Below the pieces are notes generated by a model. It did no database searches, had not been told where the DNA came from, and saw only the letters and a list, made by a program, of their open reading frames with translations. From IMG/VR virus record IMGVR_UViG_2675903278_000002: a stretch of DNA of 64,000 nt; one strand, written 5' to 3'. The DNA comes from a virus. Taxonomy: Duplodnaviria; Heunggongvirae; Uroviricota; Caudoviricetes. The translations under genes and the position numbers were made by a program. Below are positions 4,453 to 62,058 of the stretch, in pieces (position 1 is the stretch's first letter; each line of letters starts with the position of its first letter).

Positions 4453-4620
4453 TTGTAGGTAGTTATCTATCTGTGTATATTGCGTTGGCGCGTTAAATTT
4501 CTGAAACAACTATTCGTTTTTGGTGGCCTATGGCCACCATTTTTTTATCTGTCTGGTCTTGTTCTCTCAATAAATGTAAACTCACGCAATGAATAAGTGG
4601 TTACTTATCTTTGTGAGGTT

Positions 4621-9428: not shown

Positions 9429-9448
9429 TAGGTATTTACTTACCTATC
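9429..9448. repeat. class-B palindrome (ATAGGTAnnTACTTACCTAT family)
   Basis: ATAGGTATTTACTTACCTAT just upstream of the Dam-like gene; same family at ten other intergenic sites. Confidence 0.6.
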
Positions 9449-9458
9449 GAGAAAGAAG

Positions 9459-10052
9459 ATGATTGCAGCCGAAAAAATCAAACAGCGAAAGCGCGACAAC
9501 TCTCTTCGTGACCTCTGGAGAACACCTGACTGGCTGTTTTCTGCCATTCAACGTTATCTTGGAGTGACATTTGATGTTGACGTTGCCTGCAACAAGGACA
9601 ATGCAAAGCTGCCTAATTTCATAGGCGTTGAGCGTGATGCTTTGAAATCTGAATGGGGACAGCCAGGTACAATTGCCTTCCTCAATCCACCCTACTCCAA
9701 AATCTCCCCCTGGATTGATGCGGCTATACGTGAGCAGGCTCGCGGAGTTACAACAGTGATGCTAATTCCTCAATCCCTAGATACAAAGTGGTATGAGCGT
9801 GCAACAGAGTGTGCGAATGAGACGATTATTCTGTCTGGTGGCCGCGTAGCGTTTGTCGAGCCTGACGTCAATCTGGGTCAGGTAGAAGTAAACATCAACC
9901 CAGGTGGCAGTATGCTCGTTGTTTTTCGAGGATTCTGTCAGGACGCTGGGCACTCTATAAGCAAGATCCCTTTGGACGTCATGAAAAGTCTGGGAGGGTA
10001 TGATCCTGCGAATGTGATCAGGAAAAAAAGACCATCAAAGAAGGCTGCTTAG
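9459..10052 (+). CDS. dam: DNA N6-adenine methyltransferase (phage Dam-like)
   Basis: 197 aa; catalytic NPPYS (AFLNPPYSKISPW); size and motif order fit small phage Dam enzymes. Confidence 0.8.
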   Translation: MIAAEKIKQRKRDNSLRDLWRTPDWLFSAIQRYLGVTFDVDVACNKDNAKLPNFIGVERDALKSEWGQPGTIAFLNPPYSKISPWIDAAIREQARGVTTVMLIPQSLDTKWYERATECANETIILSGGRVAFVEPDVNLGQVEVNINPGGSMLVVFRGFCQDAGHSISKIPLDVMKSLGGYDPANVIRKKRPSKKAA

Positions 10053-10074
10053 TTTGTTCTGGCGTCTGTAATTA

Positions 10075-10131
10075 GCCTGCTTCTGTATATATAAATAACT
10101 ACATATTAATTATTAATATACGGAAGCAGGC
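10075..10131. repeat. long AT-rich hairpin element, copy 1 of 2
   Basis: GCCTGCTTCTG ... CGGAAGCAGGC inverted arms around an AT-rich loop; near-identical element at ~39561-39616. Confidence 0.7.
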
Positions 10132-10213
10132 TGTTTTGTATCAGAGACTCCAGACCTGAACATCACTACAGAATCCACTAGAACCCCTTCCCAGACGCTT
10201 TAAAATCGATTTT

Positions 10214-11052: not shown

Positions 11053-11646
11053 ATGACGACGAAGACACCAGCCCGATCGCAAGAAAAAACTCGCAAAAAA
11101 GCCAAAAACAAAAATTCTCCCCGCACCAATTCCACAACGCCTGTCGTAGAGTTCAATCCCCAGCTTAAAACCGTGAAAATCTTCAGTGATGGCTCTTGCC
11201 TTAAAAATCCGGGTGGCCCGGGCGGTTACGGTATAGTTCTCCAGTATCGTGGTGAGGAACGCGAGTTCTCAGATGGTTTTCATAGCACCACCAATAACCG
11301 CATGGAGATGATGGGGGCACTTATCGGGCTGGAGCGTTTGAAATATCCATGCAACGTTATTTTGCACTCTGATAGCCAGTATCTGAAAAACGGCATGACA
11401 CAGTGGATGAAATGGTGGAAACGCAATGGATGGGTGACTTCTGACAAAAAACCGGTAAAGAATGTTGATCTGTGGAAGCGTCTGGATGAGGCTGCAAGTC
11501 GACATAATGTTCGCTGGAAGTGGGTTAAAGGTCACGCCGGGCATCGTGAAAATGAAATATGTGATCGACTCGCGAAGATCGCAGCTTTTTCCGCAGCAGA
11601 TATGCCTCACAAGAAAGATATTGGTTTTGTTTACAACAAGCAGTAA
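11053..11646 (+). CDS. rnhA: ribonuclease HI
   Basis: [51 protein letters not shown] match RNase HI catalytic regions; basic N-terminal extension; in frame with track ORF 10999. Confidence 0.9.
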
Positions 11647-11791
11647 GTAAGTGTTTACCTATCATTTTAAATCATGTATCTTATCAGCGTCAGGATGACA
11701 ATGTGTCGGTAAGACACAGTTCCAGGATGGAACGAGAAAGGCGGCTGGCAATCGCCAGCCGCAACTCTTTCTGACACTGGATGGAGTCCAC

Positions 11792-14927: not shown

Positions 14928-16613
14928 ATGAATACAGCCCTTTCCATCATCGACGATGCCAACTCAAACACTGCTATCGACTATCGGCAGGAAATGAACG
15001 TCATCCACGAAATTGTGGCCGAGTGCGAGAAAGAGATCGCCTTCATGTATCAGGTACACGACTTCGTTTATGGCGACGAACGCCACAACATGATTAATCG
15101 CCTGCTGAGACTAAACCATCGACCAGATGAAGATCGCTCGCGTTTAAATCGAGGTTGGTTGGATAAAGTCGATCTGGAATGGGTGAAACAGAATATTTGG
15201 GCCGAGTACTGGAGGAAGGTCACGGACATGACTAACGTTTTGCTGATCATGCCAGCTTCCCGTCGAGATGAGTGGCGCGAGCAGTTTATAGAGGGCAAAC
15301 AGGAAGTCATCAAAACTGACAGAACCGGCTACCAGATGAAGGTTAAAGAGTTCGTTGGTGTACCGGAGTTCAAAGCAGAAACGGTCATACCCACGATGCT
15401 TAATTTGCTGAATGACAGGCACAAATATCTCTCTGAGCGCGTGTATGGCTTGTTTAAGGCGCTGAGTCCTGCGCACAAGACAAATAAGACAAACGGTTTC
15501 AGCGAACGTCTGATAATCGCTGACTGCATTTCTGATTTCTGGCGGGACAGCGTTAGTGTGAACTATCGCAAAGAGGACTATATCGACGATCTGCGTGTCT
15601 TGCTTCATTTCTTCGCGCACAAAGAATTTATTACCATCAACCGCACTGCTGAGGTGCTATCAGCTGCGTATCGGGCAAACGACTGCCAGACCGGTGACTG
15701 GATGAACGTCGATGGAAATCTAATGCGCGTGAAGATGTTCAAGAACGGCAACGTTCACTTTGAAATACATCCTGACGTGGCCTGGAAGTTGAATGAGGTG
15801 CTGGCTTACAGTATGCCTGCTGCAATCCCCGCGCCATGTCGCACCGCGCCAAAAACACGGGCACCAAAGCAGTTCGGGTTAATCCAGAAGACGATCTCCG
15901 TGCCGGTTCGCACTGCGCTTCGTGACGGGCGATTAAGCAAAGACAAAGGCGTATGGTACTTCTCTGATTCAGCTCTCCAGAAGTCGCAGGTGGAAGAGCT
16001 TGAGCGCACACTGAGCTTCATTGGCGGCGTGCAGGAGAAAAAGCACTGGCAGTTCCCGTATGAGATCGGCCATACGCTAAATACGATTGTGGCTACCGGA
16101 TTAATACCGGATACAAAATCACACCAGTTCTACCCTACCCCACGCTTGATTGCTGAGTACGTTGCCAGAGCCACTGAATTGAAGTCTGGTGAGAAGCTGC
16201 TGGAGCCTCAAGCCGGACGTGGGGATCTTCTGGCCTATATCAACGCCGATCTGGAAGATGTTACCTGCATAGAAATCGCACCTCTCTTCGCTGATATCCT
16301 GCGCGGAAAAGGGTATACGAACACGATTTGCTGCGACTTCATAAAGTGGTCTGAGGACAACGTAGGTTATCAGTTCGACAAAATCGTTATGAACCCGCCG
16401 TACTCGCTTGGTCGTCATAGAGAGCACACGCTGGCTGCGCTGGGGCATCTGAAAGTCGGCGGGCGTCTTGTAGCAGTATTGCCGGGCACTGCGCCAATAC
16501 TGGACTGGATGACGATGGATAATTACGTTTATGCCAGAGGGAAGTCGTTTACCAACGAGTTTGAAGACACAGGGATCACAGTCAGCGTATACGTTTTCAA
16601 ACGCGTTAAATGA
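14928..16613 (+). CDS. putative DNA methyltransferase with large N-terminal domain of unknown function
   Basis: 561 aa; C-terminal third has SAM-binding-like LEPQAGRGDL and catalytic IVMNPPYS; first ~330 aa unrecognised. Confidence 0.75.
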   Translation: MNTALSIIDDANSNTAIDYRQEMNVIHEIVAECEKEIAFMYQVHDFVYGDERHNMINRLLRLNHRPDEDRSRLNRGWLDKVDLEWVKQNIWAEYWRKVTDMTNVLLIMPASRRDEWREQFIEGKQEVIKTDRTGYQMKVKEFVGVPEFKAETVIPTMLNLLNDRHKYLSERVYGLFKALSPAHKTNKTNGFSERLIIADCISDFWRDSVSVNYRKEDYIDDLRVLLHFFAHKEFITINRTAEVLSAAYRANDCQTGDWMNVDGNLMRVKMFKNGNVHFEIHPDVAWKLNEVLAYSMPAAIPAPCRTAPKTRAPKQFGLIQKTISVPVRTALRDGRLSKDKGVWYFSDSALQKSQVEELERTLSFIGGVQEKKHWQFPYEIGHTLNTIVATGLIPDTKSHQFYPTPRLIAEYVARATELKSGEKLLEPQAGRGDLLAYINADLEDVTCIEIAPLFADILRGKGYTNTICCDFIKWSEDNVGYQFDKIVMNPPYSLGRHREHTLAALGHLKVGGRLVAVLPGTAPILDWMTMDNYVYARGKSFTNEFEDTGITVSVYVFKRVK

Positions 16614-16633
16614 TAGGTAAATACTTACCTAAT
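16613..16633. repeat. class-B palindrome
   Basis: ATAGGTAAATACTTACCTAAT, near-perfect palindrome directly after the methyltransferase stop. Confidence 0.6.
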
Positions 16634-16674
16634 TTGTGTAAGAATGTAGTTACTAAACGATAAGAGAAAAACAC

Positions 16675-20148: not shown

Positions 20149-20400
20149 ATGAGCGACTGGAATATTGCAGCTAAAAGTCAGGAAGAACGGGATAAGGTTA
20201 ACGTTGATCTGGCTGCCAGCGGTGTGGCGTACAAAGAGCGATTGAACATACCTGTCATAGCTGAACAGGTAGCCCGCGAGCAACCAGAGAACCTGCGCAC
20301 CTATTTCATGGAACGGTTACGGCACTACCGGCAGTTAAGCCTCCAGTTGCCAAAAGGAAGCCATCCGGTGTATCAGAACGAGGATGCACCAAGAAAATAA
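20149..20400 (+). CDS. hypothetical protein
   Basis: 83 aa; ATG 2 nt after lipoprotein stop. Confidence 0.55.
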
Positions 20401-21265: not shown

Positions 21266-21277
21266 GAGAACTGATTA

Positions 21278-21301
21278 GGCGGTGCATTGCACCGCCTTTT
21301 T
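21278..21301 (+). terminator. rho-independent terminator
   Basis: GGCGGTGCA/TGCACCGCC hairpin followed by TTTTT, between the UmuD'-like gene and the convergent apbC stop. Confidence 0.7.
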
Positions 21302-22403: not shown

Positions 22404-22560
22404 CCCGTCTCCTTTATTTTAATTTGCGCAATTGTCGCCTTGTAGTGTACTCCAGCTACGACATTTAATCATTTATGAGAAATGCTGTTATCACATGGCA
22501 GACATAAGGCCATTTTGTTACTATCAAGCCCCTTTTCACTACAAAGAAGTAATGCCTACT

Positions 22561-24594
22561 ATGACCCAAGTCGCGAAGAAAATTCTGGTGACGTGCGCGC
22601 TGCCGTACGCTAACGGCTCAATCCACCTCGGCCATATGCTGGAGCACATCCAGGCTGATGTCTGGGTTCGTTACCAGCGAATGCGCGGCCACGAGGTTAA
22701 TTTCATCTGTGCCGACGATGCCCACGGTACGCCGATCATGCTGAAAGCACAGCAGCTTGGTATCACACCGGAGCAGATGATTGGCGAAATGAGTCAGGAA
22801 CACCAGACTGATTTCGCAGGCTTTAACATCAGCTATGACAACTATCACTCGACGCACAGCGAAGAGAACCGTCAGTTGTCTGAGCTTATCTATACTCGCC
22901 TGAAAGAGAACGGTTTTATTAAAAACCGCACTATCTCTCAGTTGTACGACCCGGAAAAAGGCATGTTCCTGCCGGATCGTTTTGTAAAAGGCACCTGCCC
23001 GAAATGTAAAGCGCCAGATCAATACGGCGATAACTGTGAAGTCTGCGGCGCAACATATAGCCCGACTGAATTGATCGAGCCGAAATCGGTGGTTTCTGGC
23101 GCTACCCCGGTAATGCGTGATTCCGAACACTTCTTCTTTGATCTGCCTTCTTTCAGCGAAATGTTGCAGGCATGGACCCGCAGCGGCGCGTTGCAGGAGC
23201 AGGTGGCGAACAAAATGCAGGAATGGTTTGAATCCGGCCTGCAACAGTGGGATATCTCCCGAGATGCGCCTTACTTCGGTTTTGAAATTCCGAACGCGCC
23301 GGGCAAATATTTCTACGTCTGGCTGGACGCGCCGATTGGCTACATGGGTTCCTTCAAGAATCTGTGCGACAAGCGCGGCGATACCACCAGCTTCGATGAA
23401 TACTGGAAGAAAGACTCCACCGCCGAGCTGTACCACTTCATCGGTAAAGATATTGTTTACTTCCACAGCCTGTTCTGGCCTGCCATGCTGGAAGGCAGCA
23501 ACTTCCGCAAGCCGACCAACCTGTTTGTTCACGGCTATGTGACGGTGAACGGCGCGAAGATGTCCAAGTCTCGCGGCACCTTTATTAAAGCCAGCACCTG
23601 GCTGAATCATTTTGACGCCGACAGCCTGCGTTACTACTACACTGCGAAACTCTCTTCGCGCATTGATGATATCGATCTCAACCTGGAGGATTTCGTTCAG
23701 CGCGTGAATGCCGATATCGTGAACAAAGTGGTTAACCTGGCCTCCCGTAATGCAGGCTTTATCAACAAGCGTTTTGACGGCGTGCTGGCAAGCGAACTGG
23801 CTGACCCGCAACTGTACAAAACCTTTACTGATGCCGCTGAAGTGATTGGCGAAGCATGGGAAAGCCGCGAATTTGGTAAAGCTATCCGTGAAATCATGGC
23901 ATTGGCTGACCTGGCTAACCGCTATGTCGATGAACAGGCTCCGTGGGTGGTGGCGAAGCAGGAAGGACGCGATGCCGATCTGCAGGCGATTTGCTCTATG
24001 GGCATTAACCTGTTCCGCGTGCTGATGACGTACCTGAAGCCGGTACTGCCGAAACTGACTGAACGTGCAGAAGCATTCCTGAATACAGAACTGACCTGGG
24101 ATGGTATCCAGCAACCGCTGCTGGGCCATAAAGTAAATCCGTTCAAGGCACTGTATAACCGCATCGATATGAAGCAGGTTGAAGCACTGGTGGAAGCATC
24201 CAAAGAAGAAGTGAAAGCCACAGCCGCACCGGTAACTGGCCCACTGGCTGACGACCCGATTCAGGAAACTATCACCTTTGACGACTTCGCCAAAGTTGAC
24301 CTGCGCGTGGCGCTGATTGAAAACGCAGAGTTTGTAGAAGGTTCTGACAAACTGCTTCGCCTGACGCTGGATCTCGGTGGTGAAAAGCGTAATGTCTTCT
24401 CAGGCATCCGTTCCGCTTATCCAGATCCACAGGCACTGATTGGTCGTCACACCATTATGGTGGCTAACCTGGCACCACGTAAAATGCGCTTCGGTATCTC
24501 TGAAGGCATGGTGATGGCTGCTGGCCCCGGCGGGAAAGATATCTTCCTGTTAAGCCCGGATGCTGGTGCTAAACCTGGCCACCAGGTTAAGTAA
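22561..24594 (+). CDS. metG: methionyl-tRNA synthetase (host-type)
   Basis: Starts [31 protein letters not shown]..., KMSKS present, ends ...GAKPGHQVK; essentially the E. coli MetG sequence; track ORF 22432 begins upstream in frame, ATG 22561 is the conserved start. Confidence 0.96.
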
Positions 24595-31084: not shown

Positions 31085-31260
31085 ATAGCCACCAGCTGCC
31101 GCAGGGAAATTTTCAGAAACGGCGAGGAACGTATTCATAAGCCGACGGGAAACGGCCAGGATTTTTTCGGGAAACGGCTGCATTCGCCTTTATGTAGAAA
31201 AAAACATCGGGAAGCTGGTGGAATCCAACCAGCGGTTGTCGGACAGGCGAGCGGGGAAAA
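31085..31260. repeat. second array of GGGAAACGG-like iterated repeats
   Basis: GCAGGGAAATT, CAGAAACGGCG, GACGGGAAACGGCC, TCGGGAAACGGCTG, ATCGGGAAGCTGG, GCGGGGAAAATT; begins with CTCTATAGCC box also seen after the terminator at ~28303. Confidence 0.6.
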
Positions 31261-33419: not shown

Positions 33420-33944
33420 TCAAAAAGGCAAAATTCGTTCAACCCAATCGAACAAAACAACTATTTTTCTACCGTTCTCGACACGTAGTGTAACCTGACA
33501 AGCATCTGCGCCTGCTGACACCCCCTCAATTTCACGGCCATCCGCCATGTACACCCTTATAGATTTGTTTGCTTTGTAGGCTTGGTTGCAAATTGCAAAA
33601 AAATCGCGGCGTGATGGCCGATTATCGACATAATCAGGGTGAACTGTTAGTCGACCTTTGAAATCGTGAGCGATACTGTCAACCACACCTGATTCAATTG
33701 TACTAATGCGTTCAAGTGGGAGCCTTATACGATTTTCTTTGTCAAAAGGGGCTGGGCAAAGGTCAACTTTGTTACGAGATGGCATGAGGCCATAAACGTA
33801 CATGCAAAACGCCTGGCCATCTTCGAGAGTGACCCTTACAGGAATTTGTTCTCTGCGCCAGAACATCAGTAGTTTTTCAACGTTAGTGTAATCTCGCGGC
33901 CAGAGTTCAGCTTGGATACCGTAGGTAATATCTTTGGTTGTCAT
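33420..33944 (-). CDS. hypothetical protein
   Basis: ~174 aa from internal Met (MTTKDITYG...) of track ORF 33420..34022; ATG 1 nt after the upstream lipoprotein gene stop. Confidence 0.55.
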   Translation of the reverse strand: MTTKDITYGIQAELWPRDYTNVEKLLMFWRREQIPVRVTLEDGQAFCMYVYGLMPSRNKVDLCPAPFDKENRIRLPLERISTIESGVVDSIAHDFKGRLTVHPDYVDNRPSRRDFFAICNQAYKANKSIRVYMADGREIEGVSAGADACQVTLRVENGRKIVVLFDWVERILPF

Positions 33945-33948
33945 ATCA

Positions 33949-34371
33949 TCACAGAGTTGTTGGCAGAATGTCGATGTCACCAGAATTGCTGGTAAACACC
34001 CTGAACGCTTTTGTGTCTCCATTCTTCAGAGTCGTTTCTCGCTCTTGACGAGCGGGGTTTAGAGCACATAAACCTGCACCTTCAAGAGATGCACCCACAA
34101 TTAATTCTCCGGCATTTAAATGGAAAGTCGCTTTTTCGCCTGTAGCCAGTTTTGCGACAGTTTCGCCGTTGATGAAAATGGAAGCATCACATCCAGCTCC
34201 TACAAAACCTGTGTCTCTCATTACCACCAACGTAGCTGGCGCTGCGCTTTGATACTTGAACACTTTGGCCTGCGGTGCTGGTTTGGCGTCATGGATTGAT
34301 ATTGGGTGTGATTGGCACGCGGCAAGCATCAACACTGGTAACGTTAGTAGAGGGAGAAGCGAGTATTTCAT
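33949..34371 (-). CDS. putative lipoprotein (candidate superinfection-exclusion protein)
   Basis: ~140 aa from internal Met (MKYSLLPLLTLPVLMLAACQ...); lipobox LAAC; function inferred by analogy. Confidence 0.6.
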   Translation of the reverse strand: MKYSLLPLLTLPVLMLAACQSHPISIHDAKPAPQAKVFKYQSAAPATLVVMRDTGFVGAGCDASIFINGETVAKLATGEKATFHLNAGELIVGASLEGAGLCALNPARQERETTLKNGDTKAFRVFTSNSGDIDILPTTL

Positions 34372-36322: not shown

Positions 36323-36347
36323 ATAATAAGTAAGTGATTACTTAGTG
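36323..36347. repeat. class-B palindrome in divergent intergenic region
   Basis: TAATAAGTAAGTGATTACTTAGTGG between helicase (-) and ParB-like (+) starts; overlaps a TATAAT hexamer. Confidence 0.55.
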
Positions 36348-37043
36348 GATTGTAGCAATAAAATGGATGTAAAAATCACGATTTTGCAGGTTGATGTTGC
36401 CAACCTTCGCCCGAATACCTGGAACACCAATTCGGTTGGTGCGCAGAATTTTGAAAAACTGAAAGGTTCTATCGAAAAATTGGGCTTTTTTAAGCCAATT
36501 TTGGCTCGTGAACTTGAAGATGGATTTTTTGAAATCCTCGGCGGTGAACATCGCTGGCGTGCTGCTATTGAGCAAGGAATTTCAACGGTTCCGGTGCTTT
36601 CTGTGGGCAAAATTAGCGATGTCGTAGCTAAACAGATGTCACTGGTGGACAACGAGCGATACGGTGAAGACGACCAAATCGCATTGCAACGCTTCATTGA
36701 AGAAATTCAGTCAGAACTTGACTATCAACTGTCTGAAATCGCCCCGTATGACGACGAAATCTCGATGGTTTTAGCAAAAGAGGCGGCAATCGACCTTGAA
36801 GCACTGGAGGCGTTGTCTCGTGGTAGTGATGAGCCTGTCGATACCGACAAACGAGAGAAAACCGAACGTGTGGGTGCGGAACATCAGACCATGCGCTTCA
36901 AAGTAACTTTCGATGCGTCAGATCGTGTTGCAGAAACCATAAAAAACATCATCAAAGAGCAGGCTATTAACACCGGTAATGAAATGGAGAACGCTGGTGA
37001 GGCTCTGGTGTGGCTGGTCGACTACTACAAGGAGCGTATGTAA
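36345..37043 (+). CDS. ParB-like nuclease domain protein
   Basis: 232 aa; ParB/Srx-like N-terminal motif FEILGGEHRWRAA; track start is GTG 36345, ATG at 36363 also possible. Confidence 0.8.
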   Translation: MDCSNKMDVKITILQVDVANLRPNTWNTNSVGAQNFEKLKGSIEKLGFFKPILARELEDGFFEILGGEHRWRAAIEQGISTVPVLSVGKISDVVAKQMSLVDNERYGEDDQIALQRFIEEIQSELDYQLSEIAPYDDEISMVLAKEAAIDLEALEALSRGSDEPVDTDKREKTERVGAEHQTMRFKVTFDASDRVAETIKNIIKEQAINTGNEMENAGEALVWLVDYYKERM

Positions 37044-37711
37044 TGACCAAAAAGTTTGAAATCGTATATCGCGACCCGGCAGATCTTATTCCCTATGAGA
37101 TGAATGCCAAAAAGCATGATGAACAGCAGATCAGAGATTTGGCCGCAGCCATTAAAAAGCGCGGATTTGACCAGCCAATTACGGTCGATAAGAACGACGT
37201 AATTATTACTGGCCACGGCCGCCGTGAGGCTGCAATTTTTGCTGGACTTGAGCGCGTACCGGTTATTGTTCGTGATGATCTGAGTGATGACGAGGTTCGT
37301 GCGAAGCGCCTTGAAGATAACCGACTTGCCAGCATTGATTACGATGCAATTAAGCTACAGAAAGAGCTTGAGTCGCTTGTTCTGGACGATATTGAGGTTT
37401 TCGGCTTTGAAGAGCGTGAGTTGAATGTTCTCGTTGGCAGTATGACAGAAGAAATGGACACCGACTCGCTAGTTATCGATCTTGGCGAAGAAACTAAACG
37501 ACAGAAGGATGAACACACCGAGATCAGTCGTGAAGTTGCAGCGGAAGAAGTACGTGTTGTCGACGTATTGGGCTTTAAAACGCTCCCTGCTGGCTCTGCC
37601 ATTGTTGTTGGTGATTTGCTTGCCCATATGGAAGAAATGACGGGAGAAAGCGGGGTAGACGCATTTGTGGCATATGCGGAGAAGATCTCTTCCGGGGAGA
37701 TGGCTGCATGA
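37043..37711 (+). CDS. ParB-like nuclease domain protein (second paralogue)
   Basis: ~222 aa from ATG overlapping previous stop; ParB-like ITGHGRREAA; acidic C-terminal half. Confidence 0.8.
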   Translation: MTKKFEIVYRDPADLIPYEMNAKKHDEQQIRDLAAAIKKRGFDQPITVDKNDVIITGHGRREAAIFAGLERVPVIVRDDLSDDEVRAKRLEDNRLASIDYDAIKLQKELESLVLDDIEVFGFEERELNVLVGSMTEEMDTDSLVIDLGEETKRQKDEHTEISREVAAEEVRVVDVLGFKTLPAGSAIVVGDLLAHMEEMTGESGVDAFVAYAEKISSGEMAA

Positions 37712-38373
37712 GCAAATACATCATCAACGTATCGTTTCAGACACGCGTAAATAAAACCACGCGCACGTTGGAAATCGCTGAGTCGTTCGGGCTTGGCCTG
37801 GACGAAAAAGAGTGGACGCTTTACGACAATCTGGAGCTGGAAGTGAAGCAGGGCGATGTGGTGTACATCACCGGCCAATCCGGTTCCGGCAAATCCGTTG
37901 TGCTGCGCGAGTTGCAACGACAGATGAAGGATGAAGGGCTGTCTGTAGCCTCCATCGATGATTTTACCTTCGATAATGAGGTTAACGTCATCGATCAGTT
38001 GGGCAAAACGACCAGTGATGCGCTTGGGTTGTTATCTATGGCTGGTCTGAACGATGCATATCTGTTTGTTCGCAAGCCTTCTGAAATGTCAGACGGCCAG
38101 AAATATCGTCTCAAGATTGCCAAACTGATTGAGTCAGGCGCTAAAGTATGGGCTGCTGACGAGTTCGGCGCTGTTCTCGACCGTGTAACCGCTCAGGTTG
38201 TGGCGTCTAACCTCCAGCGTGCCGCTCGAAAGGTTGGTGCGACGGTAATGGTGGCGACGACTCACGAAGACCTGAAGAACGCGCTGCGCCCTGATATGCA
38301 GATCACCAAGCACTACAAAGAACGCGTGAAGGTGGAATATCACAATGGTAGTCATGATGAGGTCCATTCATGA
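37708..38373 (+). CDS. ABC-type ATPase
   Basis: 221 aa; Walker A ITGQSGSGKS, signature-like MSDGQKYRLKIA, Walker B VWAADEF; coupled to ParB-like genes. Confidence 0.8.
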   Translation: MSKYIINVSFQTRVNKTTRTLEIAESFGLGLDEKEWTLYDNLELEVKQGDVVYITGQSGSGKSVVLRELQRQMKDEGLSVASIDDFTFDNEVNVIDQLGKTTSDALGLLSMAGLNDAYLFVRKPSEMSDGQKYRLKIAKLIESGAKVWAADEFGAVLDRVTAQVVASNLQRAARKVGATVMVATTHEDLKNALRPDMQITKHYKERVKVEYHNGSHDEVHS

Positions 38374-39260
38374 CGGACATCATCATTAAACGCTACCGCC
38401 CTGAAGAGTTTCCGCGTCATCTGGACTTTCTGGAGCGAATGACTGTTACAAAGGGAACTGTAGAGGACTGGCACGCTCTTAAGTCGCTTCACTACAAAAC
38501 AGACGGCAAACCTTTCGCGCCAACTTACTATCGCTGCGAACTTGATGACCGTCTGGTGGGCGTCGTGGTTATGGCTTACCCGAAACTACTGTTGGCACCT
38601 CGCCACCGCATGTTTCCTAAGTTGAAACCAACCACTAATACCACCGTGGCTAACCAGTACTGGGGTCGGTACGTGAATAACAACTTTGCGGTGATCAGTC
38701 GCTCAGTTGTGGATACTCAGTATCGTGGCGTAGGCGTCTCTTATAGAATGATTAACCTGGTTAGCAGGATGCATGACCGGCCAATCATTGAGATCCAGTC
38801 CTCGATGAGCAAATACAATCCCTTCGCCATGAAAGCAGGGTTTAAGTTCATCCGCCCTGAGCGACCGAAGAGCTATGAAAGTGCACTGCGTGTGTTCCAG
38901 CGCCATTTCCGCTCCGACCCGGGTGATAACGAGGCGATCGTCAAAGAGTTGTTCGCTATGAGCGAGTCTCGTCGTCGCCGTGCGCTGCGCGATTTGGTGG
39001 CGGACTACCATAAGAACAGTTCCCTGGCAAAAGCTGGGCGGAATCGTGGCACGACGATTCAGGACATTGCCGACAGTCTGGTGGACGAGGCCAGCATTGT
39101 GAAGCTGCTCAAGGACATTCACAACCTGAGCTTTACGTCTCCGTTGTATGGTGTGTACCGAAACCCTGACTTTGGCCGTCGACTGCCTGACACGCTGCCA
39201 CTGCTGGCATTCGACAAACAACCTTTGGATAAACCGTTAGAAATTGCTTTACCGGCATAA
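38370..39260 (+). CDS. hypothetical protein, possibly acetyltransferase-like
   Basis: 296 aa; overlaps previous stop; QYRGVGVSYRMINLV loosely resembles a GNAT acyl-CoA site; low confidence on function. Confidence 0.65.
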   Translation: MTDIIIKRYRPEEFPRHLDFLERMTVTKGTVEDWHALKSLHYKTDGKPFAPTYYRCELDDRLVGVVVMAYPKLLLAPRHRMFPKLKPTTNTTVANQYWGRYVNNNFAVISRSVVDTQYRGVGVSYRMINLVSRMHDRPIIEIQSSMSKYNPFAMKAGFKFIRPERPKSYESALRVFQRHFRSDPGDNEAIVKELFAMSESRRRRALRDLVADYHKNSSLAKAGRNRGTTIQDIADSLVDEASIVKLLKDIHNLSFTSPLYGVYRNPDFGRRLPDTLPLLAFDKQPLDKPLEIALPA

Positions 39261-39269
39261 GGATTTGCC

Positions 39270-39536
39270 ATGACGTTAACCGACAAACAAAAGGACATCA
39301 TCAAAACGCTCAATCTCGGTTATGAGCGAGGTCATCTACTTGACCTGGACGAATTGCTTGAAGTTTTGCCGTACAAGACAACCAAGCAAAGTATCCAGTT
39401 CTCAATTCGCGCTCTGATAAAAAAGGGGCTGGTGGAGAAAGGGCATACGCGCCAACGCAGTGACAATCGCTATCACCGCCGGACTCTTGGGTTAACCACT
39501 TTAGGTCGAGCCAAAGCGAAGTTACTGGTGATGTAA
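39270..39536 (+). CDS. small basic protein, possible DNA-binding
   Basis: 88 aa; lysine/arginine-rich with helix-turn-helix-like segment; immediately upstream of packaging genes. Confidence 0.6.
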   Translation: MTLTDKQKDIIKTLNLGYERGHLLDLDELLEVLPYKTTKQSIQFSIRALIKKGLVEKGHTRQRSDNRYHRRTLGLTTLGRAKAKLLVM

Positions 39537-39560
39537 TCGGTCTGGGAGCTTATTTAAAGA

Positions 39561-39616
39561 CCTGCATCTGTATATATAAATAATAAGTAACTTATTAAAT
39601 ATATACGGAAGCAGGC
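39561..39616. repeat. long AT-rich hairpin element, copy 2 of 2
   Basis: CCTGCATCTG ... CGGAAGCAGGC around AT-rich loop; homologous to element at 10075-10131; ~115 nt upstream of terminase small subunit. Confidence 0.7.
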
Positions 39617-39650
39617 TTCGTAAGACATGCCAGACCTAATTAAACACCCC

Positions 39651-39693
39651 AGAAAACAAGTTGGTTAGCAGATGCAGTAAACAAGTTGTTTTA
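39651..39693 (+). promoter_or_regulatory. tandem class-A palindromic motifs plus hairpin, upstream of packaging operon
   Basis: AGAAAACAAGTTGGTTA and GTAAACAAGTTGTTTTA ~10 nt apart, followed by AGAGCGC-ATGGAC-GCGCTCT hairpin. Confidence 0.6.
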
Positions 39694-39731
39694 GAGCGCA
39701 TGGACGCGCTCTGTGTGTTTTAGAGGGATCT

Positions 39732-40364
39732 ATGACGGTCGAAAAAGACGAGGTAAAAACTCGCCTGACACCAGCGGAGTGGGCCGAAGCTGAAGCCAAA
39801 TGGACGTCAGGCGAATATACACTCTCAAAGCTGGAGGAAGAGTACGGCATTCGTCGTGAAACACTCTCCAGACATTTCAAAAAGCGAGGATTAGAGAAAG
39901 GCGCGGACTCTGTTGGGAAGATGGTTCGTGAGTCTCTTAAATCTGACGCAGAGCTTCGCGCTAAAGCCCGTGCGGAAAAGATAGAAGAACGTCGTACACG
40001 TTATGACGGCTGGGCGTATGCGTTGGGGCAGATGGTGATGGTCGAAGTCACTACGGCCAAACGTGAGGGTAAGCCTTTAGGGGCGATTGAGGATTCTCTC
40101 AAGAGCTTACAGAGAGCCAGTAATACCCTTGCAAAATGCTTTGAAGTTTCGTCCAAAGCATTGGGCATGGATCATGCGGAAAATGACGAGGAAGAAATTC
40201 CGAACCTGGTATTTGGTGAGCTTACGCCTTCCCAGGTGGCGAAATTACGTCAGGAAGACGACGAGCCTGAAATCATCGATGACGAATTGCTTGAGACGTT
40301 GGAAGAAGAAGCTCTAAGCGAATTTGATGCGACAGATGATGGAAGTGAAGGGGAGGACGAATAA
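39732..40364 (+). CDS. terminase small subunit (putative)
   Basis: 210 aa; helical N-terminal region, highly acidic C-terminal tail; directly precedes and is coupled to large subunit. Confidence 0.7.
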   Translation: MTVEKDEVKTRLTPAEWAEAEAKWTSGEYTLSKLEEEYGIRRETLSRHFKKRGLEKGADSVGKMVRESLKSDAELRAKARAEKIEERRTRYDGWAYALGQMVMVEVTTAKREGKPLGAIEDSLKSLQRASNTLAKCFEVSSKALGMDHAENDEEEIPNLVFGELTPSQVAKLRQEDDEPEIIDDELLETLEEEALSEFDATDDGSEGEDE

Positions 40365-41620
40365 TGGCAATCCCGTCCTCGCTCAGTCTTGTGCAACTGC
40401 ATTCTGGACAGATGAAAGTCTTCCAGTCTCCGCATCGATTTAAAGTTGTTTGTGCTGGTCGACGCTGGGGAAAATCCCGGTTGTCGATCTCCACTATTAT
40501 TCGTGCGGCGGCAAAGGAAAAAAAGCAAAGAGTCTGGTATGTCGCTCCTACTTACCAGATGGCTCGCCAGATTTTGTGGGACGATCTACAGGAAGTTCTG
40601 CCTCGTAAGTGGGTTAGGAAAAAGAACGACACCACGATGACAATCGTGTTGAAGAACGGTTCGGAGATCGCCCTCAAAGGTGCTGATAAGCCTGACACTC
40701 TGCGCGGCGTAGCGTTGCATTTTGTAGTGCTTGATGAATTTCAGGATATGAAGGCTGACACCTGGTACAAGGTGTTACGACCTACTCTTTCATCGACACG
40801 CGGCGGTGCACTGATCATTGGTACGCCAAAAGGCTTCTCGGAATTTCACAAACTGTGGACTATAGGCCAGAACGTAGAGCTGCAAACAAAGGGACAGTGG
40901 AAGAGCTGGCAGTTTGTAACTGCCGATTCTCCGTTTGTACCTACGGCGGAAATTGAAGCTGCTAAGAACGATATGGACCCGAAATCGTTCGCTCAGGAGT
41001 ACCTGGCGAGCTTTGAGAACATGTCCGGGCGCGTTTACTACCCGTTCGATCGTAACGTGCATGTAAAACCGCTTCAGTTCAACCCTCGGTTGCCTATATG
41101 GGTAGGGCAGGACTTCAACATTGACCCGATGTCTTCAGTAATTTTGCAACCTCAGCCAAATGGTGAGCTATGGGCAATTGATGAATTGGTGCTCTTTTCC
41201 TCTAACACGGCAGAGGTTTGTGATGAGCTTGAGAGACGCTTCTGGCGCTGGAAATCACAGATAACGGTATTTCCAGATCCGGCAGGTGCTTATCGCCAAC
41301 ATGCTCGCGGGGAGTCTGACGTCGACATATTCAAAGAGAAGGGATTCTTACGTGTCGATTATTCGAAAAAGCACCCGCCAATTGCGGATCGTGTTAATGC
41401 TGTTAACCGAATGCTGATGACCGCATCTGGAGATATCCGGCTGTATATCGATCCGAAGTGCAAGCATTTGATTGATTCACTGGAAAAAGTCATCTACAAG
41501 CCTGGAACACGAGATATGGATAAGACAGGTGGCATTGAGCATAGTGCAGACGCATTGGGCTATCCAGTACATCGTAGGTATCCAGTCAAAAACCGTGTTA
41601 TTCTTGGTGGTTCTCGATAG
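40364..41620 (+). CDS. terminase large subunit
   Basis: 418 aa; Walker A VVCAGRRWGKS, Walker B VVLDEFQD, C-terminal nuclease-like acidic motifs (GQDFNIDP, FPDPAG). Confidence 0.85.
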   Translation: MAIPSSLSLVQLHSGQMKVFQSPHRFKVVCAGRRWGKSRLSISTIIRAAAKEKKQRVWYVAPTYQMARQILWDDLQEVLPRKWVRKKNDTTMTIVLKNGSEIALKGADKPDTLRGVALHFVVLDEFQDMKADTWYKVLRPTLSSTRGGALIIGTPKGFSEFHKLWTIGQNVELQTKGQWKSWQFVTADSPFVPTAEIEAAKNDMDPKSFAQEYLASFENMSGRVYYPFDRNVHVKPLQFNPRLPIWVGQDFNIDPMSSVILQPQPNGELWAIDELVLFSSNTAEVCDELERRFWRWKSQITVFPDPAGAYRQHARGESDVDIFKEKGFLRVDYSKKHPPIADRVNAVNRMLMTASGDIRLYIDPKCKHLIDSLEKVIYKPGTRDMDKTGGIEHSADALGYPVHRRYPVKNRVILGGSR

Positions 41621-41635
41621 GTAAGTAATTATCTA
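41618..41635. repeat. class-B palindrome
   Basis: TAGGTAAGTAATTATCTA overlapping the terminase stop, before portal gene. Confidence 0.55.
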
Positions 41636-41646
41636 AGGTTATTCAA

Positions 41647-43221
41647 ATGGAATTGAACGACAAACAAATTAAGGATCTGGTGGCGCGACGCCACCCGGAA
41701 TACGAAAAGAAAAAAGAACATTGGGACTTCCTCGCCAGCACTTACGCTGGCGGGCGTGGTTGGTTTACAGACAATATCTTTCGTTACTTTAAAGAGGGAG
41801 ATCAGGAGTTTAAGGAGCGAGTTGAACGTGCTTATCGCTTCAACCACACTCGTGAGGTGGTAAACCTCATCAACAAATATCTCTTTAAAGAAGACATTCA
41901 TAGAAATATCGAAGAGGCACCAGAGCAGATCCGCAATTTCTGGAAACGTGCGACTCGCCAGAATGCCTCTATTGACTCATTTATGGCCGCTATTGATTTG
42001 CAGTCGTCTATTTACGGTCGCATATGGGTTGTTGTCGATAGCACGATGAGTGGTGATGTTGAGTCAGTAGCTGACGAGAAAAAGAAAGATGCTCGCGCCT
42101 ACGCCTACTGGATTTCACCTCAGCAAATGCTGGATGTGGCATGGGACGACGACGGGAATATGTTGTGGGCGTTAATTGTGGAAGTCGCTCGTGATGACGC
42201 AGATCCTTTTACTTCTACAGGTCAGGAATACCAACGTTATCGTCTGTGGACACAAAACGAGTGGTATCTGTTCCGTGAGGAAGTGAAGAAGGGCGCTGGT
42301 GGAGCAGGTCGCCGTCAGGCAAAAGTTATTTTAGAGGATAGCGGTGAGCATAATCTCGGCGTAGTTCCTGTGTTTCCTGTTGATTGTATTGGAGAAAGTG
42401 AATCACCGTATTTCAGCCCATCGTTGATCGATGATATCGCTTATCTTGATCGTGCGGTTGCAAACTATCTGTCAAACCTTGATGCCATTATTCAGGATCA
42501 GACATTTAGCCAGTTGGCTATACCGGTACAGTCGCTTTTACCTGGTGATGAAAACCACACTAAAGTGCTTGAAATGGGCACAAAGCGAGTATTCACCTAC
42601 GATTCTGAAGGTGGAAACCAGCCGTTTTATCTGTCACCAGACCCGAAACAAGCTCAGATGATCATCACTACGATTAAGACGGTGATTAACGAAATCTACC
42701 ATTCAGTTGGTGTAGCTGGTGAGCGAACGAAGCAGGACAACGCACAGGGAATCGATAATTCATCTGGTGCCGCAAAAATGTATGACTTCCAGCGTGTAAA
42801 TAGCTTGCTTGTCACAAAAGCAGAGCGTCTGGAAAGGGCTGAACGCCAAATCATGCTACTGGTTGCGAAATGGATGGGGGTAGATCTGGACGAAGACCAC
42901 TCTTTAATTGCGTATCCAGAAAGTTTCGATATTCGTGGCCTTACTGATGAATTTTCTGTTGCCGAGAAACTGTCATTACTTCAGGCACCGGACTCTGTAC
43001 GTCGTCACCAGATGGAAATGCTTATTGAGAAGATTTTCCCGAACATTACTGAGGCGATGAAAAAGGAATTTGATAAAGATCTCTTGAATTTTCCTCCAAA
43101 AAATGATCTAAATACCCTTGAAAATAAGTCAGTACTTACTTATGATCGTGGTGCAGCCCAAGAAAGCGGGCAAGATCAACCCCGAGGGAATGGGGACTCA
43201 TCTACTCAAGAGAACGAGTGA
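41647..43221 (+). CDS. portal protein (putative)
   Basis: 524 aa; assignment by size and position between terminase and scaffold/capsid. Confidence 0.7.
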   Translation: MELNDKQIKDLVARRHPEYEKKKEHWDFLASTYAGGRGWFTDNIFRYFKEGDQEFKERVERAYRFNHTREVVNLINKYLFKEDIHRNIEEAPEQIRNFWKRATRQNASIDSFMAAIDLQSSIYGRIWVVVDSTMSGDVESVADEKKKDARAYAYWISPQQMLDVAWDDDGNMLWALIVEVARDDADPFTSTGQEYQRYRLWTQNEWYLFREEVKKGAGGAGRRQAKVILEDSGEHNLGVVPVFPVDCIGESESPYFSPSLIDDIAYLDRAVANYLSNLDAIIQDQTFSQLAIPVQSLLPGDENHTKVLEMGTKRVFTYDSEGGNQPFYLSPDPKQAQMIITTIKTVINEIYHSVGVAGERTKQDNAQGIDNSSGAAKMYDFQRVNSLLVTKAERLERAERQIMLLVAKWMGVDLDEDHSLIAYPESFDIRGLTDEFSVAEKLSLLQAPDSVRRHQMEMLIEKIFPNITEAMKKEFDKDLLNFPPKNDLNTLENKSVLTYDRGAAQESGQDQPRGNGDSSTQENE

Positions 43222-55117: not shown

Positions 55118-55140
55118 GGATAAGTAAGTACTAATTTACT
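55118..55140. repeat. class-B palindrome
   Basis: GGATAAGTAAGTACTAATTTACT after gpM-like gene. Confidence 0.5.
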
Positions 55141-55193
55141 ATCATTGTGGCGCTGACAGGATGTTAGCGCCTACTTATTTCAAGGATGAAACA

Positions 55194-62008: not shown

Positions 62009-62037
62009 TGGTGGAAAAAAAATTTTATATCGGTAAA

Positions 62038-62058
62038 AATAGGTAAGTATTTACTTAA
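62038..62058. repeat. class-B palindrome
   Basis: ATAGGTAAGTATTTACTTAAT between J-like gene and tail fibre gene; GGCGGG...CCCGCC hairpin follows. Confidence 0.55.

Follow-up and report, generated by a model that had tools for sequence, protein, structure and literature searches.

The window analysed in the present work, being the whole stretch of 64,000 nucleotides (nt) of the Caudoviricetes record IMGVR_UViG_2675903278_000002 (IMG/VR database), contains two copies of a long hairpin element in which GC-rich arms enclose an AT-rich core. One copy is located downstream of a Dam methylase gene (here named copy B) and the other upstream of the terminase genes (copy C), and a third (copy A) is situated outside the window in related genomes. 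Two regions of the window are 98-99% identical to Escherichia phages CMS-2020a and Cyrano, the latter being the re-annotated plasmid pLF82, a phage-plasmid of E. coli LF82, and the same two regions are ~77-79% identical to Salmonella phage SSU5 and Klebsiella relatives. Judged by these identities, the window represents ~64 kb out of the ~108 kb of a circular SSU5-type phage-plasmid, in which nearly all genes are co-oriented according to the annotated Cyrano record. The region of copy C was found on plasmids in 259 of 5426 complete E. coli genomes, and on the chromosome in none. Phage-plasmids of the SSU5 type are common and carry resistance genes, their gene regulation and packaging being essentially unstudied, and no description of the three-copy hairpin element was found in the literature searched. 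The features surrounding the two copies present in the window are as follows:

9459-10052, + strand: dam (Dam methylase; PF05869, E 2.5e-38), the gene preceding copy B
10056-10062, unstranded: left outer box GTTCTGG (inverted CCAGAAC), 11 nt before the copy B hairpin
10074-10132, + strand: copy B hairpin, AGCCTGCTTCTGTATAT...ATATACGGAAGCAGGCT, with arms 10074-10092 and 10114-10132 around the AT-rich core, 22 nt past the dam stop codon
10133-10141, + strand: U-run tail GTTTTGTAT, directly 3' of copy B
10150-10196, + strand: array of CCAGA(A/C)-type boxes, with exact boxes at 10150 (within CCAGACCT) and 10191 and degenerate CAGAAT and TAGAAC between them, in steps of ~10/20 nt
39270-39536, + strand: gene for an 88-amino-acid (aa) MarR-like winged-helix protein (predicted), preceding copy C
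39539-39548, unstranded: left outer box GGTCTGGGAG (inverted CTCCCAGACC)
39560-39617, + strand: copy C hairpin, ACCTGCATCTGTATAT...ATATACGGAAGCAGGCT, 24 nt past the stop codon of the open reading frame (ORF) 39270-39536 and 114 nt before the terS ATG
39630-39654, + strand: right boxes, CCAGACCT at 39630-39637 and CCAGAA at 39649-39654
39732-40364, + strand: terS candidate (PHROG 'DNA binding domain'), overlapping the start of terL
40364-41620, + strand: terL

The initial annotation had reported two AT-rich, GC-clamped hairpins, one after a Dam-like gene and one ~115 nt before the terminase small subunit gene, each followed by a conserved short box. Both hairpins were recovered, the PF05869 match bears out the Dam-like assignment, and the box corresponds to CCAGACCT, present at 10150-10157 and 39630-39637. 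The third copy for which a search had been advised does exist beyond the window (Cyrano 31158-31212; CP053388.1 28806-28860), where it lies between the parA operon, whose final gene ends 23 nt upstream of it, and the helicase/primase/ligase operon, which begins 116 nt downstream. Each genome carries three copies, at ~0, 31 and 78 kb on the 108-kb circle, and each of these begins 22-24 nt past the stop codon of a co-directional + strand gene and is located ~105-115 nt ahead of the next + strand gene.

The stem consists of 17 contiguous pairs, extending to ~25, and in copy C it includes a 1-nt arm mismatch and one G.U pair. Without gaps, copies B and C are 81% identical over 57 nt, and a gapped pattern made of the two arms matches at B and C only in the 64 kb (0 matches expected from shuffled sequences). 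On the + strand, copy B folds with -32.1 kcal/mol (z-score -6.1) and copy C with -30.8 kcal/mol (z-score -7.1), in both cases with 0 of 200 shuffles as good, and copy A folds with -34.7 kcal/mol (z-score -9.8), so that the stable stem-loop of an intrinsic terminator is found in all three copies (z-scores from -6 to -10). In terms of raw folding energy, B and C fall outside the 12 lowest 70-nt windows and become outliers only after correction for composition, their energies being exceptional for their low G+C content. Searching the whole window against Rfam yielded 0 matches at the gathering score.

Conservation of the element across relatives

IMG/VR loci were retrieved through proteins encoded next to the element (TerS at copy C, Dam at copy B, the CYRAN_31 homologue at copy A), the element playing no part in the search. 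It is present in 74 of 74 C loci, 73 of 73 A loci and 68 of 78 B loci, the ten B loci without it being those with the most distant Dam homologues (61-72% identity), and in all 215 SSU5-group loci it occupies the same three positions. Among 67 unique arm pairs, positions 1-4, 7 and 10-14 of the arm CCTGYTTCYGTATA are near-invariant on both sides, positions 5, 6, 8 and 9 are the only variable ones, and the spacers adjoining the arms vary freely between lineages.

Changes confined to one arm were scored on the unique arm pairs, where G.U outnumbers C.A both at position 9 (33 vs 10) and at position 5 (11 vs 2); in copy C of Morganella, the C-rich 5' arm carries three C-to-T changes opposite an intact G-rich 3' arm. 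Such an asymmetry in favour of G.U is expected for pairing in + strand RNA and unexpected for a protein site on duplex DNA. An approach based on pair counts was dropped, as MAFFT set the distant sequences out of register. Relatives from Morganella and Xenorhabdus have arms that differ and yet are complementary (GCCGTGCTCCCATA and GCCTTGCTCCCATA): the arms of locus L280, GCCTTGCTCCCATA and TATGGGAGCAAGGC, pair perfectly (14/14), and the Morganella arm reads GCCGTG...

In some genomes, copies A and C are identical at 55 of 55 positions and have lineage-specific core changes in common, which indicates gene conversion between these two copies. The Morganella copies B and C share a lineage-specific right arm. 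Two scans with 14-mers for extra copies in genomes of the Morganella/Xenorhabdus type gave chance hits only, and gapped or longer patterns applied to Morganella-type genomes recovered the shared right arm of B and C plus one right-arm-only copy, with no full triplet. A right-arm-only copy (L573, IMGVR_UViG_2597490185_000004, ~1430-1480) is located within a mini-ORF of 16 codons, MKNLFKYYGSTASKNT, that has a ribosome-binding site ahead of it, an overlap which is probably a coincidence.

Boxes of the CCAGA(A/C) type follow every copy on its 3' side at a fixed and approximately helical spacing (+17-20 and +58-61 for A; +13-16 and +32-35 for C; several for B), and most copies have one inverted box 13-16 nt upstream. 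CCAGACCT represents the right half of an outer inverted repeat, the left halves of which are GTTCTGG at copy B and GGTCTGGGAG at copy C. These boxes occur in 25-47 of 40-54 variants as compared to ~1 in shuffled sequences, the exception being the left box of copy A (16 of 54); the left box is present in 45 of 49 B variants (~0.6 in shuffles) and in 36 of 40 C variants. The array probably regulates the downstream operon, as far as its arrangement allows this to be judged.

Transcription termination at copies A and B

On balance, we lean towards a function that is exerted mainly at the RNA level, in which the element acts as a long-stem terminator combined with a regulatory cassette at three fixed intergenic sites. 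A run of at least four T's within 12 nt 3' of the stem is present on the + strand in 48 of 54 unique A variants and 44 of 49 unique B variants, and on the - strand in 5 of 54 and 0 of 49, respectively, and the run at A and B is kept while the surrounding bases vary between lineages. For copy A, published RNA-seq data on strain LF82 are available (supplementary table of Misson et al., PMC9928086): CYRAN_30 has log2 values of 5.7-10.4, as compared to 2.3-4.2 for CYRAN_31, the next gene. The signal drops across copy A by ~3 log2 in LB culture and by 5.7-7.9 log2 (~50- to 230-fold) under the four remaining conditions. These two genes are 193 nt apart, and no strong structure other than copy A was noted between them. 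A drop in RNA is seen for copy A only, the genes flanking B and C being too weakly expressed in lysogens to show one.

For copy B, the lineage L273-L279 is informative: here the dam ORF extends across what was once the 5' arm, the hairpin is lost, and 10 nt downstream a new hairpin of 7+6 pairs (a 13-bp stem) is followed by GUUUUU. Because this new terminator sits beside the decayed hairpin, a stop signal is evidently needed after dam. Inside the hairpins or just after them, no sigma-70 promoter was found on the + strand.

The most likely identity of copies A and B is that of long-stem intrinsic terminators, or insulators, joined to a CCAGA(A/C) box array. The initial annotation had offered strong termination as an alternative for both of the copies it described; the spacing from the stop codon, the + strand U-run, the drop in RNA at A and the replacement terminator at B support this for A and B; the U-less copy C is the odd one out among the three and at best a weak stop.

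Under the reading preferred here, RNA polymerase leaving dam (copy B) or the plasmid-maintenance and cargo genes (copy A) would transcribe the stem of 17-25 bp and the U-run and then terminate, with a stem far above the 7-11 bp of ordinary terminators providing for a robust stop. In the case of pLS20 TerR (Miguel-Arribas et al., PMC10325885), a stem above ~14 bp, a length which the present element exceeds, makes a terminator resist processive antitermination, and such a resistant terminator was argued to be necessary at the end of an antiterminated operon. TerR needs a U-run of at least 7 nt for full resistance. Like TerR, the element has a stem longer than the usual 7-11 bp, GC-rich at its base and AT-rich in the middle, with a U-run after A and B; it closes a long block of co-directional genes on a mobile element, and a neighbouring operon has an antitermination-type layout (see below). 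Unlike TerR, its stem is 17-25 bp instead of 15 bp, its U-run is only 4-6 nt, it exists as three sequence-conserved copies with boxes, one of them U-less, in a Gram-negative host, and no antitermination system was recognised when 39 ORFs were scanned against PHROG and Pfam. By analogy with TerR, the stem could resist processive antitermination, in which case three very long-stem stops would keep antiterminated polymerases from circling the co-directional genome. The order of hairpin, phased boxes and, ~105-115 nt on, the first gene of the next block would then correspond to a terminator plus regulatory cassette, with the cassettes insulating three large transcription blocks. We infer termination at copy B, resistance to antitermination and a role of the boxes in this scheme. 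Copy C could instead serve as a pause, processing or stability hairpin, or could have a role at the DNA level.

Long (at least 20 bp), imperfect intergenic RNA hairpins with sequence common to the copies and without a U-run are the RNase III sites of phage T7. Copy C resembles these in its lack of a U-run and the element as a whole in its long imperfect stem with shared sequence, a likeness that leaves aside the internal-loop pattern; the U-runs of A and B and the AT-rich top of the stem are points of difference.

A number of observations weigh against the terminator reading. The U-run of copy C is present in 0 of 40 unique variants, those of A and B are short (4-6 nt), and the comparable palindromes that distant relatives carry ahead of terS are likewise devoid of a U-run. 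The 14-nt arms are almost invariant over three paralogous copies and all SSU5-group lineages, which exceeds what a plain terminator stem needs, and within the SSU5 group no covariation between the arms was detected, since the variable positions are independent and the pair classes correspond to the expectation from column composition. The preference for G.U is reversed in class B at position 9 (C.A 8 vs G.U 4). Furthermore, the phased CCAGA(A/C) array with its inverted box upstream looks like a protein-binding array on DNA, and neither an antiterminator nor a sigma-like gene was identified among the 39 neighbouring or unknown ORFs scanned.

If the terminator reading is true, a long-stem stop in three copies defines the transcription blocks of SSU5-type genomes and explains how silent lytic genes stay insulated from the plasmid and cargo genes, which are expressed; the element would also be a natural Gram-negative test case for very long terminator stems that resist antitermination.

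Alternative readings and the packaging question

Several of these observations are shared with an unlikely alternative, namely that the element is a duplex-DNA site for a phage protein, be it an operon regulator, a ParB-like/ABC-ATPase system for which it would act as a centromere or loading site, or the 88-aa MarR-like protein, and that the hairpin is a by-product of dyad symmetry. Near-invariant arm positions next to variable spacers, the uncorrelated arm variation within the SSU5 group, the outer inverted boxes and phased arrays at all three sites, and the right-arm sequence common to Morganella B and C would all be accounted for, and the MarR-like gene is located directly upstream of copy C, in a ParB-like/ABC/winged-helix/terS synteny that is kept in Pseudomonas phage nickie. 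Against this, the strand-specific U-run at A and B would serve no purpose in such a site, the G.U-tolerant decay of the arms fits RNA pairing, and half-sites separated by ~27 bp are uncommon for a small winged-helix dimer, for which another palindrome of this genome (AAACAA-N-TTGTTT, see below) is a better fit; moreover, where the hairpin was lost it was replaced by a terminator and not by a binding site. A wider version, which we consider distinctly unlikely, holds the composite palindrome to be a clade-defining DNA recognition site of ~100-kb phages and phage-plasmids, with copy C as a working pac/cos or with the three sites as a loading or segregation signal for the conserved ParB-like/ABC-ATPase/winged-helix cassette found in every case ahead of terS, the tails of A and B being secondary.

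The initial annotation had suggested that the terminase-proximal copy could relate to packaging initiation. Its placement before terS stands, 114 nt upstream and thus at the usual location of cos, and the remainder of the idea found no positive evidence, the starts of database records being the only hint. In its full form, in which copy C and analogous palindromes are the recognition and cleavage site of the terminase (cos/pac), cut in the AT-rich core, with boxes that bind the small subunit and with A and B as extra or pseudo sites, we judge the idea to be quite improbable. The SSU5 reference record ends with ...GACTTATTA and begins with AATATATACGG, i.e. inside copy C, 9 nt to the right of its palindrome centre. 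In four of the distant TerL relatives examined (Faunimonas, Methylocystis, Chitinibacter and Piscirickettsiaceae), a GC-clamped, AT-cored and U-less palindrome is located between the winged-helix gene and terS, and phage nickie has a long imperfect hairpin at this place. The pac site of P1 consists of symmetric repeats flanking a central cleavage region, a layout which the symmetric arms around the core resemble, and copy C has further features in common with lambda cosN and P1 pac, i.e. its position just upstream of terS, its dyad symmetry and AT-rich centre, and its flanking repeated boxes. Unlike these sites, the element is present in three copies and has terminator tails on two of them. 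A unique cos next to the terminase genes is hard to reconcile with an element whose arms and boxes recur three times per genome, with only copy C adjoining terS. The Cyrano record starts 1 bp from the SSU5 start, and since its authors compared pLF82 with SSU5 and report no terminus mapping, we take this start to have been set on that of SSU5 and not to be independent. Among IMG/VR contigs, L286 and L299 break off within copy A, L230 and L265 do so at ~35 nt or less from copy B, and none ends inside copy C, the nearest end being 45 nt downstream; therefore the repeated palindrome appears to break assemblies generically, and the SSU5 record start is probably such a break. In practical terms, it should not be taken as a genome end. 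No termini for SSU5-type phages were found in the literature searched, and the closest solved terminase large subunit, the ATPase domain of P74-26, is uninformative with regard to cos versus pac. If copy C were the packaging site after all, it would provide a first handle on the encapsidation of SSU5-type elements.

Recombination sites had also been raised by the initial annotation. A role as recombination cassettes, in which the copies are substrates for homologous exchange that shuffles gene modules, is very unlikely to be the function. The 45 nt upstream of copy A fall into 22 sequence clusters as compared to 6 downstream (L284-L363), and for this reason copy A appears to mark the edge of the variable cargo region; this position, together with the concerted evolution of A and C (55/55 identity in some genomes), is indirect evidence for recombination. 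The genome encodes recombination proteins of the UvsX/UvsY/UvsW type, and a precedent is available in the PeSLs of the T4-type phages RB49 and phi1 (PMC2839356), which are repeated regulatory cassettes. Like PeSLs, the copies are repeated and conserved intergenic units in which a terminator stem-loop is joined to the regulatory sequence of the next gene, with a hyperplastic region and exchange between copies. Unlike PeSLs, there are just three, at syntenic positions that are fixed across genera, with no recognisable sigma-70 promoter within the unit and a far longer stem, and only the upstream side of A is variable, so that they do not behave as mobile cassettes of this type. Recombination between direct copies would cost the genome 30-47 kb of essential genes, and a recombination role would be an evolutionary by-product and not a function, compatible with termination. 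Scarcely credible, finally, is a reading as lytic replication origins, with the AT-rich core as unwinding element clamped by inverted repeats that bind an initiator. It could draw on the core between GC-rich dyad arms, on iteron-like flanking boxes, on copy A immediately preceding the helicase/primase operon and on the T4-like recombination and replication genes of the genome, but no initiator was identified (the protein next to copy A belongs to PHROG 2500, of no known function), the core is unconserved in length or sequence beyond its AT-richness, and strand-specific U-runs and the drop in RNA fit termination.

Two further identities were rejected. The T4-type late promoter motif TATAAATA in the core gave 2 hits as compared to 1.5 expected, both in the hairpins and none before late genes, and is unconserved in relatives. 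A telomere or protelomerase palindrome was discarded given that the closest record is circular and that no protelomerase is present among the annotated Cyrano genes.

Late-operon layout and neighbouring features

Between copy C and terS, the following features were noted in addition to the right boxes:

39654-39691, + strand: two copies (39654-39666 and 39679-39691) of the 13-bp palindrome AAACAA-N-TTGTTT, a dispersed motif and candidate late-operon operator or promoter element
39692-39723, + strand: short-stem terminator-like hairpin (39692-39713) with T-run, directly before the terS ribosome-binding site

The short stem before terS covaries in SSU5-group relatives (GCGC/GCGC to GCAC/GTGC), and a terminator is found at the same place in Piscirickettsiaceae, Chitinibacter and Oxalobacter relatives and in Pseudomonas phage nickie. 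It is preceded by a good sigma-70-type promoter in the Piscirickettsiaceae and Chitinibacter relatives, and by a perfect TTGACA -35 box in nickie. This layout, with a terminator immediately after the promoter and ahead of the first late gene, is that of antitermination control, as in lambda PR'-tR', and by this analogy the arrangement suggests antitermination control of the late operon. Ordinary short-stem terminator-like hairpins are also present within gene blocks, e.g. at 2262-2280, 4521-4539 and 21277-21297.

The gene preceding copy C is predicted with good confidence to encode a minimal MarR-like winged helix: the model of the 88-aa product has a predicted local distance difference test (pLDDT) of 82, and Foldseek returned MepR, ZitR and MarR with template modelling (TM) scores of 0.7-0.75. 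The protein is without a Pfam family, and a search in a large protein database gave close homologues only. Together with two ParB-like proteins, two ABC-type ATPases, terS and terL, this small protein is encoded by a cassette at 36345-41620 that is common to SSU5-type phage-plasmids and phage nickie (L574, 3383-9423) and that, from its composition, may be a functional module tied to packaging. Concerning terL itself, the TerL match in the distant relatives L560, L563, L567 and L569 begins at query residue 40-123, and no terS-like ORF was found directly upstream in these loci, the DNA there not having been translated or checked; their terL may contain a large insertion, possibly an intein.

The AAACAA-N-TTGTTT palindrome is present 15 times in the window as compared to 0.4 expected, always on the + strand (13 nt each, starting at 2319, 12541, 13270, 17811, 24679, 24730, 26343, 27538, 27915, 28399, 29302, 30052, 30537, 39654 and 39679). 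Those copies that were inspected are intergenic and situated ~20-30 nt ahead of a start codon, and the motif is a candidate operator or promoter element that would fit a MarR-like dimer better than the hairpin does.

Another recurrent feature is a small AT-rich hairpin motif, TAGGTAAGTA..TTACCTA (alternatively read as GATAAGTAAGTAnnTACCTA), which is found in either orientation between genes (9429-9453, 11644-11667, 16608-16635, 41611-41635, 43119-43143, 55120-55144 and 62036-62057), its placements including the position just before the dam ATG, the gap between terL and the portal gene, and the region before CYRAN_31 downstream of hairpin A. Finally, three accessory genes were unexpected: a homologue of DNA polymerase III theta (20149-20400; PF06440), a homologue of FljA, the repressor of phase-1 flagellin (33420-34022, - strand; PF03614), and an ORF of 720 aa (22432-24594) which the Cyrano annotation describes as a methionyl-tRNA synthetase.

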